A stretch of 63,862 nt of DNA, filler included, from an uncultured Methanosarcinales archaeon (lineage in GTDB: Archaea; Nanobdellota; Nanobdellia; Woesearchaeales; CAZXZL01), in NCBI GenBank assembly GCA_964645415.1. It is 4 parts of 4 records of this genome, joined end to end, with 100 filler letters (N's around TTAATTAATTAA, not from the genome) between each part and the next. Parts side by side here need not be neighbours in the genome. Positions count along the whole stretch, not along the records: positions 34,883 to 61,131 come from CAZXZL010000009.1; 3 more parts are not named here. One strand, written 5' to 3'. Below, one piece after another: positions 42,801 through 50,057 of the stretch. Made by a program: the position numbers. Within the stretch, counting starts at the first letter, position 1. Every line of letters begins with the position of its first letter.

Positions 42801-45800
42801 TAATAAAGAAAGACTATCAGGATTATAAGGGATTAGAGGTAGACTACAATTAATTATACCCTCACCTGAGTGATGTTTGTCATAATCATAATCTGTGATA
42901 AAACATTCAAAAAAATTACCTTCATTTAATTTATTTTCAGCTTGATAGATAGAGAGGTCTTTACTAATATCTTTATCTGAGAGAAAAACTCTTTTTTGTA
43001 AAGAATCTATATCTCTATATGAATCAAATTCATAATGAATCTCAATATTATCTCCAGGGGAAATATCTTCAATTGGTGAATCAAAAGTTGGCTGGTTAAA
43101 ACGATAAGAGAAATACCCTGTTTCTAAATTAATTGGAACAATAAAAACTTCATCATTATTAGTTTTATTTAAAATTAAATGAGCAGAAATACTTTCAATA
43201 GTTTCTATTTCATTAAAAGAAAGAATTTCATCAACCATGTCTACAGAAAAGTTATAATATAAATTAATTGTTTTATCACTTAAACCATCTATTGAAATAA
43301 CTTTATTATTACTAAAATCAGAGAATTCATTTTCAATAAAACTAAAAAAATTCAAATCAGATAAAGCTTCATTATCAATATTTTCATCATTAATATCATC
43401 GAGTTCTATACTAACATCAATATCATATGGTGAATTAATTTTATTAAATACAATTAACTCGTCTAATCTTCCAGTTGTATTAAAAAGTAAATCACCTGAA
43501 ACTTCAACATCATCTATTCTAAATAAATCAGTGATTTCAACATCATATGAATTTGAAAATGAAGACAATAAAAGGACATTTGTAAATATTAAAAGAATAA
43601 AAACAATTAATTTTCTATTAATTAAATAATCCATACAAGAACACCATAAAAAAATATTTTAGTAAGCAGGGTAGTTAAAAATCACAATAATTATATTTAA
43701 ATGTTGTTACTATATCTCTAAATTTGAAAAAATTAAAAGAACTATAAGTGTAAGAAAAAGAACATATAGTTAAAGAAAAATAATAATAGTAGTTAATCAT
43801 AATGAAATTTTAAAAAAATATATCTAAAAAAAGTGATACAAAAAGTAGTTAAATTGAATTTAATAAATCAAAAGTTAAAAAAATAAAAAAGATAGTTAGA
43901 AGGTTTATTTTTAACATCATTATTTTTTGTTAATAACTTCTTTAACAGCATTTTGAACATCATTTGGTGAGAAACCAATAATAGTTATTTTATTTTTTTC
44001 TAAGTAACTTTCTAAAATATTAGAAATTTCAAAGTATTTCTTTCCCACTAAAATCGATTCAATATTATCTATTTCATTCTCAGGGTATATAAAAAAATCA
44101 CCAGATAATTTAAAATCAGTTATTTTATTATCATTTATATTAAAATTAATTCTTAATAATTTGCCTCCTTTTACTTTATAATCTATTTTCATTGAAAATT
44201 ACCTCTTAAAAATCCAATCATTTGTAGAATATTTATTATGTTTTAACTTTTTAGCTTTATTAAGTTCTTTATTTGTAATTTTTCCTTTGATAAAATCAAC
44301 ATTAAAAACTTCTTTAAAACCTTTTACTAAATGTTTTTGAACAGAATCTAAGCCTAAATTAAATCCTAGCTCTGAATTAAGTGATGTAACTCGATCTTTA
44401 ACATTTGAAATCATTTTATCCTTTATTTTTTCATTAGGTACTTTTAATACATTAAACATCTCATCAATATTATTTTCTAAAATTAAAGTGCCGTGTTGAA
44501 TAATTACATTATCTAATCTAGTTTGAGCACTTCCAGATATTTTTTTTCCATTAACAATAATGTCATTTATTGATTTAAATTTAGCATTTAATCCAATATT
44601 CTTTAATCCTTTAACTAAAGAAGAACATATTTTTTCATAAGATTTTTTTATATCAGAAGATAAGATATCTTTTGAAACAATTAAAGAATAAGTTATTTCT
44701 GATTTATGATAAACAGCCCCTCCTCCTGTCAATCTTCTAATTACATCTATTCCTTTTTTCTTTGCATAATCTAAATCTACTTCAGATTCTATCTCTTGAA
44801 AATAACCTATTGAAACACAAGGAGGATTCCAATTGTAAAACCTTAATGTATTTTTTGAAAAACCTTTTGAAACAAATTCTGAAATGGATTCATCTAATGC
44901 CATATTCATGTCTCCACTATAAGTATTTAAATTGATTAATCTCCAATTATTAGAATAATTATTATTATCGTTAGTTACTATTTTCAAACACCTCAAAAGC
45001 TTTATAAGAACTTCTTACAAAAGGATTAGAAAAAACATAATTAATCCCTAAATTTTTTGCATAAGATTTAATTTTATTAAATTCAGATTCAGAATAAAAT
45101 TTTTTAACAGGATAATGATTTTTTGAAGGAGGTATATATTGGCCAACAGTCAAGATATCTATTCTAGATTCATGTAGGTCATTAATTGTTTCTTTAATTT
45201 GATTAAAGGTTTCACCAAATCCTACCATAAATCCAGACTTAGTAATAATACTATTACTTTTAGCATCAATCTTTTTTAAAAGATTAAGTGAATGATTATA
45301 ATCTCCTTTAGGTCTTAAATGATTAAATAAGTTAAAAGTTGTTTCAATATTATGATTTATAACATCAGGATTTGACTCGATTAATTTATCAATTAGTTGA
45401 AGATTATCTATGAAATCAGGTATTAAAATTTCAATCTTACAATTAGGTTTGATTTTTTTTATATTATTAATTACATCAATAAAATGAGATATCCCTTGAT
45501 CAAAAAGATCATCACGAGTAACAGATGTAATTACAACATAATTGAGATTTAGTTTTTTTACTGTTTCTGCAATCATTTTTGGTTCATTTTTGTTTAAGTT
45601 AGTCGGTTCTCCTGATGAGATATCACAATACAAACAATTACGAGTACATATTTCACCCATTATTAAAAATGTAGCAGTTTTCTTAGAAAAGCATTCATAA
45701 CGATTGGGACAATTTGCAGATTCACACACAGTATTAATTTTATTATTTTTTATTAGGTTTTTTGTATCTAAGTAATCATATCTATTAAAATCTGAAATTT

Positions 45801-48800: not shown

Positions 48801-50057
48801 GATTAGATAAATCAAATTCTTCAGTAGATGTTATCTCATGTTGTGAGTGAATACCAAAGCTCAAGAGAAAAAGGAAAAAAATAATCACTGAAAAAAACTT
48901 TAAGTAATTAATATTTTGAAATTTTCTAATAATCATTTAAGTCACCTATTATAAATAAATGTTGAAAAGCTATTTAAACATTTGTTTCAAAAATTGAAAT
49001 AAACTCTTTTTTCATAATATGAAATAATTAATTAGATAAAAAAATATCAAAATAATCTTCTTTTAAAGAAATTTTATTAGTCATTCCATTTTTTTCTTTA
49101 TTAATTATTTTTTTTGACTCTAATTTGGAGATTTTTCTAGATATCTTTACTGGTGAAAGATTAGTTATTTTTTTAATTCTACTTTGACTAATAGAACCTC
49201 CTTCATTGATCAATAGTTTCACAATCTCTTTTTCAGAACCTTCAAAAAAATTTAAAGTCTTATCAACTTTATTATTAAAGTTATTAACTTTGTCTGAAAA
49301 GTTTTTTCTTAAAATATAGTAAACAAATGTACCTACAAAAATACCTAAAATTGACATTAAAATCATTAAAGAAGGAATAGTAATACTACAACCACACATT
49401 TCTTGAACACTATATCTTTCTCTGATAAAAATTGAAGTAAAAAAAACTAAAAATAGAAATCCAGAAATAATAGAAACAGCTAAAGCTATTTCTTTAAAGC
49501 TATTTTTTTCATTCATATTATTTAAATAATTACGTTCTTAATAATAGTTTCTATTTTTTGTTAGTATTTATTAGTAGCAAAAGGTTTAAATAAAAATAGT
49601 AGTTTAAAATTAATCCTAAGAAAAATGAATCTTGAAAAAAAATTATCACTAAGTAAAAAAGAAGTTAAAGTAATAGAAGAGAAAATTAATAATATTAATC
49701 TCAAAAATGCTGTGAATGAAACTGAAAAATATATTACCGCTTTAAAGAAAAAAGAATTTACAAAAAAAGAAAAGAACTACATTAGAATAAAAATTATAGA
49801 TAATCTAGAGATGAATTCAACATTTGATTTTATATTATTCTTTTTAGAAAGTAAGTTACTATTAACATTAAATCTAAAACCAAAACTGAAAGAAGAGCTG
49901 ATTAAAGTAAAAAATAGAAATGAAGAAAAGTATTTAAAAGAAAAACCAATCATTTCAAGGATAATTGGTTATACTTTTGGAATATTTATAGGATTTAACT
50001 TAATAACAAAAAAATCTTCTCTTTATAAAATTAAATAATCTCTCTATGGACTTCACT

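Follow-up and report, generated by a model that had tools for sequence, protein, structure and literature searches.

What could a protein-bound lipoyl group be used for in a cell that has neither glycine cleavage nor 2-oxoacid dehydrogenases? The question is raised by a seven-gene operon in a window of 63,862 nucleotides (the whole stretch of DNA analysed here) from the genome of a tiny symbiotic archaeon (DPANN; 961 kb, 100% complete, 1.46% contamination). As the initial annotation had stated, this genome lacks the P and T proteins of glycine cleavage and any 2-oxoacid dehydrogenase: profiles for GDC-P, GCV_T, 2-oxoacid_dh and E1_dh gave no matches in it, and neither Lpd, AhpD (CMD) nor any other lipoyl client was found there. 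Judged from its sequence, the operon points to an undescribed route by which thiol redox power may cross the cell membrane. No description of such a cassette was found in the literature searched, which included few subscription papers, and the per-genome supplementary tables of PMC10332631 may list orphan H-proteins of this kind.

All seven reading frames were intact, tightly packed and on the minus strand, in the places given by the annotation: an HTH-domain membrane protein gene (49028-49516), a CcdA-like membrane protein gene (47569-48936), gcvH (47187-47579), a CoADR/Nox-family flavoprotein gene (45827-47149), lipA (44971-45837), lplA (44199-44996) and lplB (43920-44192). The intergenic distances, from 5' to 3' along the operon, are 91, -11, 37, -11, -26 and 6 nt, the value of -26 between lipA and lplA resting on an uncertain TTG start of lplA, whose translation may in fact begin at an ATG further on. 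The coordinates agree with the 11-nt overlap previously noted between gcvH and the membrane protein gene, and GGTGA ribosome-binding motifs lie 5' of both these genes. Contigs of two runs (a possible source of the DNA) span the operon with no differing letters and no gaps. A Sigma-70 promoter scan returned 49 against 49.7, which is chance level.

The carrier is a stand-alone GcvH-like protein of 130 aa (PF01597, E 3e-31) that can be aligned to solved H-proteins in the PDB, has no signal peptide and no cysteine, and carries the lipoyl-lysine motif attributed to it, with Lys65 in EAIKWSG. This lysine was retained in 61/61 GcvH copies linked to the membrane gene, followed by Trp in 52 of them, and the linked copies mostly read EAVKWS, compared with ESVKS in true glycine-cleavage copies. 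The maturation genes were also correctly named. LipA passes the lipoyl-synthase cut-offs (NF004019, NF009544, TIGR00510), with its Fe-S motifs (CX4CX5C, CX3CX2C) and RSSY all present. The ligase is split as described, into a large subunit, LplA, which is over the PF21948 cut-off (E 2e-56; its best NCBIfam model, NF053750, is under cut-off) and has the catalytic motifs RRLTGGGAVYH and KKISGSAQ, and a separate small subunit, LplB (NF053749, 70.9 bits, cut-off 65). The roles of these proteins in lipoylation are established family functions: LplA/LplB would load scavenged octanoate or lipoate on Lys65, and LipA would insert sulfur.

The flavoprotein has one active-site cysteine, the Cys42 of the Nox/CoADR family that had been reported for it, together with FAD and NAD(P)H motifs (GGGTLG, GSGLIG). 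Its best scores are with CoADR/Nox models, all below the family cut-offs (TIGR03385, 264.7 bits); against the Lpd model TIGR01350 it scores 102-116 bits (cut-off 408.8), and the CxxxxC active site is absent. Its closest solved relative is 6PFZ, and the nearest flavoproteins of solved structure are reductases of CoA persulfides and polysulfides. With CoA-disulfide/persulfide reductases and NADH oxidases (PDB 6PFZ, 3ICR) it shares Cys42, the cofactor motifs and the domain layout; in the parts of PMC6026696 consulted, the substrate specificity of such enzymes is described as not readable from sequence, and a lipoyl-protein substrate is not reported for them. Unlike them, it falls under all cut-offs and belongs to a clade of its own tied to lipoylation genes, in which many copies have a second cysteine at 409 beside a conserved Tyr410. 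Cys42 is present in 44/44 copies linked to lipoylation genes, and a branch with support 94 sets the 27 cassette copies apart. True Lpd and the single-Cys flavoprotein are found in the same slot adjoining lipA/lplA, including in Lpd-less glycine-cleavage genomes, and from gene order we propose that the flavoprotein is an Lpd substitute acting as a lipoyl reductase.

The membrane protein combines an exported thioredoxin-fold domain with a CcdA-like membrane domain, as judged from hydropathy, conservation and AlphaFold models. The cysteines listed in the annotation are all there: CPQC at 56-59 in the N-terminal domain, where C47, C130, C135 and C137 are also conserved, C194 in GFNPCS and C323 in ELPCTS. 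The latter two are invariant in 120/120 aligned homologues and lie within helices of the AlphaFold model (TM1 and TM4), as required of CcdA/DsbD-beta transporters. The label of a glutaredoxin-CcdA fusion stands for the cysteines and for the thioredoxin-like fold of the N-terminal domain model (Z 8.3), but the Pfam profiles do not bear it out: the glutaredoxin score is 20.4 against a cut-off of 22.9, and neither the protein nor 40 members of its alignment matched DsbD_TM or DsbD_2, one member matching SfLAP. When the model was compared with CcdA 5VKV, Z was 8.6 (rmsd 4.3, 203 aligned) and 7.8 (rmsd 4.5, 198 aligned) of 224 residues, ranking 3-4 and below the bar set for helical bundles. Its Atlas neighbours were SfLAP/DsbD_TM, hhalign against an ArsG/DsbD_2 protein gave a probability of 0.4% with the first PC aligned, Foldseek against the PDB gave no matches at E<=0.001, and a profile search of PDB sequences returned thioredoxin-fold matches only. 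With DsbD, CcdA and ScsB, to which reductant export is common (PMC3322552; Thermus CcdA, PDB 5VKV), it shares an invariant pair of membrane cysteines, one in helix 1 and one in helix 4, and the presence of an exported partner with a thioredoxin fold; its structural match to 5VKV, along most of its length, is loose. It differs in having no DsbD_TM/DsbD_2 match, in the N-terminal position of its thioredoxin-fold domain(s), in its second motif (ELPC-T), in being followed by a lipoyl carrier rather than a thioredoxin, and in that c-type cytochrome targets are not evident (four CxxCH matches genome-wide, none identified as a cytochrome).

In the DPANN order to which this archaeon belongs, 301 genomes were compared: gcvH lies directly behind this CcdA-like gene in 41, of which none has gcvT and two have an E2; in the 22 true glycine-cleavage genomes of the order (those with gcvT), gcvH never adjoins it. 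These counts support the earlier view that the GcvH of this genome does not carry its cofactor for glycine cleavage or for 2-oxoacid enzymes. The conservation claimed for the link was likewise borne out, since it recurs across deep branches: over the membrane-protein tree it changes 16 times, at least nine of them forced, and the membrane-protein and GcvH trees correlate with rho 0.55, the highest value in 999 shuffles being 0.22. The frequency first given, GcvH downstream in 52 of 79 GTDB loci, was not reproduced: an adjoining gcvH was seen in 23 of 80 loci (best 80 of 559 matches); the other 57 of these best 80, mostly in free-living bacteria, had no nearby gcvH. Even where unlinked, the membrane subfamily was present in 15/22 glycine-cleavage genomes versus 25/228 gcvH-less genomes (9/12 versus 12/101 with one genome per family). 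Among the glycine-cleavage genomes its anti-correlation with Lpd was borderline (13/16 versus 2/6, p 0.054), and this and all other p-values overstate significance because kin genomes are not independent. Nearly all membrane-protein copies of gcvH-less genomes (25/26) fell in two clades, of 26 rows together, without detectable GcvH, and in one such clade trxB lies directly downstream in 3/11, in the slot that gcvH holds in this operon. The carrier is infrequent in one class of Patescibacteria (2/251, one of them the centre), and a metagenome scan with the GcvH alignment found one clade member among the 80 matches listed, which were dominated by ordinary H-proteins.

We favour, tentatively and at somewhat less than an even chance, the reading in which the membrane protein has lipoyl-GcvH as its redox partner on the cytoplasmic side and the pair serves to export reductant, the outward direction being assumed by analogy. 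The flavoprotein would use NAD(P)H to interconvert lipoyl and dihydrolipoyl GcvH in Lpd's stead; the lipoyl arm would exchange with the C194/C323 pair, in the place that thioredoxin has in DsbD/CcdA; and the next electron acceptors would be the fused CPQC domain and exported glutaredoxins encoded separately. These may hold in the reduced state a system of disulfide isomerase/repair that serves a cell surface rich in disulfides. Dihydrolipoamide reportedly feeds glutaredoxin in E. coli, according to a PNAS study. The lipoamide potential is -0.29 V (PMC6067878). Next after gcvH, 29 of the 61 linked loci have an exported Grx gene and 15 an AhpD gene, and in relatives AhpD could be a second, soluble client, like that of the mycobacterial lipoyl-AhpD relay. 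In the M. tuberculosis Lpd-DlaT(lipoyl)-AhpD-AhpC relay, as outlined in PMC12440151, protein-bound lipoate is likewise a thiol-disulfide shuttle, with AhpD matched by the AhpD-family genes of these 15 loci; here, however, the carrier is a free H-protein and not an E2, the reductase is of the single-Cys CoADR/Nox type and not Lpd, and the main partner is a membrane protein. If the lipoyl shuttle is real, protein-bound lipoate would have a new job as partner of a membrane thiol relay, the DsbD/CcdA superfamily a new cytoplasmic partner, and lipoamide reductases a new, single-cysteine kind; it would also account for the cost of lipoate synthesis in about 1 in 7 genomes (41/301) of a streamlined DPANN order without lipoate-dependent metabolism.

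Evidence against this reading comes from the gcvH-less clades, the 57 of the best 80 GTDB loci with no gcvH close by, the retention of TrxB, the 5VKV match under the bar, and the failure of weak searches among longer proteins to find a GcvH-membrane protein fusion. A FolD-GcvH protein (P0265) was rejected as fusion evidence, being a single sequence on one contig that looks chimeric. The predicted complex of GcvH with the membrane domain scored 0.12 against a mark of 0.32, which speaks neither for nor against their contact. The annotation had called the route thioredoxin-independent, which gene loss does not back, because TrxB (44/44) and canonical Trx (37/44) are kept in cassette genomes as in controls (21/25); on the same counts we discarded the cassette as a replacement of TrxB/Trx. 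The genome had also been credited with thioredoxin reductase plus thioredoxins: TrxB (and PDO) is present, but a canonical cytoplasmic thioredoxin was not found in it, and the remaining proteins with a thioredoxin fold each begin with a hydrophobic segment near the N-terminus. The TrxB-PDO pair could feed the membrane protein instead.

This last point leads to a rather unlikely alternative with two co-regulated but separately fed modules, in which GcvH and the flavoprotein, joined by AhpD in genomes that have it, would buffer thiols or act as an antioxidant in soluble form, and the membrane protein would be fed by TrxB-PDO or thioredoxin. It is favoured by the presence of TrxB in every cassette genome, the AhpD genes after gcvH, the gcvH-AhpD-flavoprotein sets of G123 and G256, which lie apart from the membrane gene, the gcvH-less membrane-protein clades, and S. 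aureus GcvH-L, which confers protection from oxidants with no partner in the membrane (PMC12440151). The S. aureus GcvH-L/LplA2/SirTM system resembles the operon in its orphan H-protein, own ligase and redox-stress role, but there GcvH-L is a lipoate store for E2 enzymes, of which this genome has none, and no SirTM, macrodomain or luciferase-like (LLM) genes were seen among the seven genes or the recurrent neighbour families. Against two modules, the gene with a constant place right after the membrane gene, in many cases with an overlap, is gcvH itself, not the flavoprotein or ligase gene, and the membrane subfamily goes with H-proteins in unlinked cases too; moreover, since this genome lacks AhpD, the soluble module would have no visible client here. 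Inward electron flow is also unlikely in our estimate, but a serious rival because DsbB/VKOR are depleted in cassette genomes. The exported domain would then oxidise secreted proteins, electrons passing through C194/C323 to lipoyl-GcvH, the flavoprotein and NAD+, O2 or sulfane sulfur, and the cassette would be a quinone-free substitute for DsbB/VKOR. DsbB or VKOR occurs in 7/41 cassette genomes versus 20/40 controls (2/18 versus 20/40 with one genome per family), which fits inward flow better, although the controls were the lowest-numbered genomes and not a random draw, half of them also lack both proteins, and the depletion may stem from habitat or ancestry. VKOR was found in 10/91 genomes with the membrane subfamily and 23/66 without it. 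DsbB and VKOR are both missing from this genome, but the proteins predicted to be exported are biased towards even cysteine numbers (71 even versus 30 odd; cytoplasmic, 197 versus 242), the exported set being defined by a crude hydropathy rule. The motifs seen in exported partners are CPHC with GVP, or CGHC, and several copies have a DsbA-like gene in front of them. Such motifs are oxidase-like, but DsbD-fed isomerases likewise have high-potential motifs, and given the potentials of CPHC-type domains, flow toward lipoamide would run uphill without the pull of O2 or a comparable sink. One homologue of the membrane protein (P0162) is fused to a VKOR domain; it is, however, a single sequence on one contig, its CxxC reads SVVC, and no locus for it was found among viral contigs. 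A precedent exists in Streptococcus gordonii, where CcdA2 serves reducing and oxidative pathways with exported thioredoxin-type partners (CcdA2-SdbB-SdbA/MsrAB; PMC7034828), which are lipoproteins there; a lipoate component is not described for that system, and MsrA is absent from this genome. Inward flow would answer how cells without DsbB/VKOR form envelope disulfides; it is doubtful that ultra-small archaea make surface disulfides without DsbB, VKOR and quinones by way of the CcdA-like protein, lipoyl-GcvH and the flavoprotein, with the same flavoprotein family supplying the missing L-protein of the order's glycine cleavage.

It is improbable that lipoyl-GcvH, partnered by the membrane protein and the flavoprotein, handles sulfane sulfur or arsenite as a carrier or dithiol sink, much as LbpA or an ars accessory would. 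TusA-YeeE-DsrE/F/H do take the flavoprotein's place in 4-5 of the 61 linked loci, genes for ArsR, ArsE-like Trx, ArsP, ArsF and ArsG flank several bacterial-type loci, and the closest solved flavoproteins act on persulfides and polysulfides; in this genome, locus-built profiles for TusA, DsrE, YeeE, ArsP, ArsG and Acr3 found nothing. The LbpA of sHdr (PMC6067878, PMC10332631, bioRxiv 10.64898/2026.10.01.755906) is likewise an H-protein homologue that works outside glycine cleavage and has maturation genes of its own, and a few relatives of this cassette have TusA/DsrE neighbours. In contrast to LbpA, which is basic and has two conserved terminal cysteines, this GcvH and 46/61 linked copies have no cysteine, and linked copies are acidic (median pI 4.9); LbpA matures through sLpl(AB)-LipS1/S2, whereas LipA/Lpl are canonical here (LipS2 model, 34 bits, cut-off 270), and no shdr genes are among the seven. 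Least probable is that GcvH is a lipoate store or a relic of lost glycine cleavage, the flavoprotein merely supplying electrons to LipA as proposed for LipT (PMC10332631). The flavoprotein gene often abuts lipA, but it also occurs with the ligase and no nearby lipA, and lipA without it; 39/41 linked genomes have no E2 to take stored lipoate, and the KWSG/KGT GcvH clades are long-lived with the lysine kept.

The first gene of the operon had been called an HTH protein; its product does have a winged HTH at the C-terminus (PF24034, DUF7343, E 4e-11), but it also has two TM helices with a cysteine pair (C41-x-C43) in the connecting loop, making it a candidate membrane-anchored regulator. Since this gene also adjoins gcvH-less membrane genes, it is tied to the membrane module. 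The cysteine pair is kept in 39/43 full-length homologues, and the protein probably senses the thiol state of the envelope.

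The seven genes that the initial annotation had placed on one strand as an operon are all present and intact: the ORFs lie on the minus strand at 43920-49516 of the window (contig C9), with intergenic gaps, in gene order, of 91, -11, 37, -11, -26 and 6 nt. By family scans their products are a DUF7343 winged-HTH protein, a thioredoxin-fold plus membrane protein, GcvH, a CoADR/Nox-type flavoprotein, LipA, LplA and LplB. The source genome (961 kb, ~24% GC) is rated 100% complete, and the named homologues closest to the operon proteins come from Woesearchaeota/Nanobdellota and Patescibacteria, which suggests a DPANN host; three runs from one study, each containing at least half of this DNA and two of them its possible source, carry the label soda lake metagenome. 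Since the window joins separate contigs (C3, C8, C9 and more) at its N runs (4024-4123, 34783-34882 and 61132-61231), gene neighbourhood across these runs is meaningless. The operon is flanked by two very large acidic surface proteins, one (37227-43634) running into a 100-base N gap and the other (50529-56114) carrying a subtilase domain.

No GcvP, GcvT, E1 or E2 was found in this genome, in agreement with the initial annotation, which had it without glycine-cleavage P/T proteins and 2-oxoacid dehydrogenase. Searches of the genome for Lpd (where TIGR01350 scored highest, at 102 bits, on the flavoprotein of the operon itself), AhpD/CMD, MsrA, DsbB and VKOR also found none. The lipoyl carrier is left without a known client, because its usual partners (GcvP, GcvT, E1, E2, Lpd and AhpD) are missing. 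A glycine-cleavage H-protein function was rejected in the absence of GcvP and GcvT; identity with LbpA was rejected by comparison with PMC6067878, PMC10332631 and bioRxiv 10.64898/2026.10.01.755906, and identity with GcvH-L by comparison with PMC12440151. The thioredoxin reductase that had been reported is there, but no canonical thioredoxin was found: at C38:1575-3199 trxB is followed by a PDO with one CxxC only (CPHC). A second DsbD_TM-like protein paired with a membrane-anchored CPYC thioredoxin was confirmed at C15:3978-5383, and the genome has one peroxiredoxin and two further exported thioredoxin-fold proteins.

In the membrane protein, which carries the CPQC motif in its exported domain, C194 and C323 are invariant across 120/120 homologues, and its family counts 2380 representatives at 50% identity. 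The DsbD/CcdA Pfam models did not match it; its membrane part, predicted alone, gave a confident model (pLDDT 89.9). Thermus CcdA (5VKV) aligned at Z 7.8-8.6 over 198-203 of its own 224 residues, scores that unrelated helical proteins equal, and Atlas neighbours of the membrane protein include SfLAP/DsbD_TM clusters. Judged by its anatomy, the protein may be CcdA-like in its working. One singleton homologue on a JGI contig (P0162, 573 aa) fuses Grx and a CcdA-like membrane domain to a VKOR domain, degenerate in having SVVC where CxxC is expected. The HTH protein (49028-49516) and 43 homologues form a winged-HTH family with two TM helices and, in the loop, a pair of Cys; this candidate envelope thiol sensor accompanies the membrane gene both where gcvH is there and where it is not.

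The earlier count of GcvH directly downstream in 52 of 79 loci was not reproduced: gcvH lies behind the membrane gene in 23 of the best 80 of 559 GTDB loci, and within these 80 it is absent beside the Chloroflexota, Bipolaricaulota, Pelovirga, Wenzhouxiangella and Truepera copies. All five linked genomes of 0.8-1.0 Mb that were checked lack gcvT. Among 301 same-order genomes (≥70% complete), 72 have a GcvH-like match at E≤1e-8. Adjacency was surveyed for membrane matches of at least 110 bits, plus one, among the matches listed (150 of 256); on that basis gcvH sits directly behind a membrane-family gene in at least 40 of the 72, none with gcvT, and adjoins one in none of the 22 genomes with gcvT. 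Ten are neither linked nor carry gcvT, and in two of them the upstream gene is a membrane gene cut short at the end of a contig; a 41st linked genome, G020, was recognised on reading its locus. E2 is present in 2 of 53 genomes tested. The membrane proteins from all loci (n=166) divide into 61 linked, 95 unlinked and 10 undecidable, and linkage changes 16 times on their tree, at least nine changes being forced by starred branches. The lipoyl Lys is conserved in 61/61 linked GcvH, short divergent carriers of 87-103 aa included. Where at least 4.5 kb lie downstream (27 linked loci), a ligase or LipB is found in 26, the flavoprotein in 22, an exported Grx or AhpD in 21 and LipA in 18; in the 61 linked loci gcvH is followed immediately by an exported Grx 29 times, by AhpD 15 times and by the flavoprotein 7 times. 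Searches of low power among longer proteins found no GcvH-membrane protein fusion. The cassette is real, conserved and apparently undescribed, no description having been found in the literature searched (subscription papers and supplements lay outside its scope); mechanistically it comes closest to the mycobacterial lipoyl-AhpD relay, as described second-hand in PMC12440151, joined to a CcdA-type relay.

The membrane subfamily also tracks H-proteins without linkage. Matches of at least 110 bits occur in 15/22 glycine-cleavage genomes versus 25/228 gcvH-less ones (15/20 versus 16/64 for genomes of at least 1.3 Mb with any match; 9/12 versus 12/101 with one genome per family). In a phylogeny of 84 copies from the same order, with clades read after the fact and G038 classed on a gcvT fragment alone, two starred clades hold 25 of the 26 copies from gcvH-less genomes, and copies from glycine-cleavage genomes are scattered through five groups among the linked ones. 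One gcvH-less clade has trxB directly downstream in 3/11, and the position behind the membrane gene resembles a donor slot that either system may occupy. The existence of these clades shows that the membrane family does not need lipoate everywhere.

It is likely that lipoyl-GcvH would be wired to the membrane protein, in either direction. The thioredoxin-independent route of the initial annotation gained no support from gene loss, since cassette genomes keep TrxB (44/44) and mostly Trx (37/44 versus 21/25 controls). That the membrane protein and lipoyl-GcvH are fed separately and not wired together seems rather improbable.

Inward flow, with electrons passing from the exported side to lipoyl-GcvH and disulfides forming without DsbB or VKOR, is unlikely; were it real, the system would be categorically new. 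Even-cysteine bias of exported proteins is a general criterion, and the predicted exported set of the source genome shows it (71 even versus 30 odd; cytoplasmic 197 versus 242) despite the lack of both enzymes. DsbB or VKOR occurs in 7/41 cassette genomes versus 20/40 controls, and VKOR in 10/91 genomes with the membrane subfamily versus 23/66 without, the controls being low-numbered genomes of the set and one under-cut-off match counting as absent. The same direction is favoured by exported partners that are mostly CPHC with GVP, by the one homologue fused to a degenerate VKOR and by S. gordonii CcdA2, which serves an oxidative plus a reducing pathway (PMC7034828). Outward flow, in which reductant would be exported via lipoyl-GcvH and the membrane protein, is our tentative reading, held with less than even confidence. 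For the known DsbD, CcdA and ScsB, thioredoxin is the source of the reductant that they export (PMC3322552), and the lipoamide potential of -0.29 V (PMC6067878) fits such export.

The flavoprotein may stand in for Lpd. Among 22 glycine-cleavage genomes with T-H-P1-P2 operons, Lpd is over the cut-off in 4, a near match in 2 and absent in 16. A single-Cys clade takes in 14 of the 15 best-scoring flavoproteins fetched from such genomes; 12 of the 14 adjoin lipA or lplA, some lie behind rnf genes, and true Lpd, where present, occupies the same position. Because Lpd-less genomes carry this clade in Lpd's place by lipA/lplA, we infer that the single-Cys flavoprotein is a non-orthologous Lpd substitute, a pattern independent of the unpublished genomes G129, G204 and G206, which give 3 of the 22, 3 of the 15, 3 of the 14 and two tree rows. 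Cys42 is present in 44/44 lipoylation-linked flavoproteins, and those of the cassette (n=27) form a separate branch (support 94). PMC6026696 warns that the sequence of a single-Cys flavoprotein does not reveal its substrate. The CoADR/Nox clade of glycine-cleavage genomes (loci L330-L344), a candidate for the missing L-protein, contains a second Cys that never varies, within a YCP motif at the C-terminal end, and some members lie behind an rnf operon.

Several loci depart from the common arrangement. Minimal 87-103-aa lipoyl carriers with an E-x-M-K-G-T type motif follow a divergent membrane clade (L228-L235, L297); a LipB-like octanoyltransferase or divergent ligase replaces LplA/LplB at archaeal-type loci L011, L014, L037 and L237; and TusA-YeeE(-DsrE/F/H) sulfur-relay genes occupy the usual flavoprotein position at L012, L016, L020, L021 and L170. 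Genes for ArsR, an ArsE-like thioredoxin, ArsP, ArsF and ArsG lie beside the membrane gene, whether gcvH is there or not (L003, L005, L009, L012, L015, L020, L021, L029, L030, L035). Another orphan lipoyl set, with ordinary-type gcvH, lipA, lplB, lplA and true Lpd, occurs at L257 and L258 in genomes G001 and G134, where neither gcvT nor E2 was found. A single-contig protein (P0265), in which a FolD N-terminus is followed by the C-terminal half of a GcvH of the cassette type, is probably a chimera. An exported ~215-aa protein, absent from the source genome, recurs with the cassette (L002:9026-9679 and 15 related loci), and an Atlas lead suggests a periplasmic-binding-protein fold.
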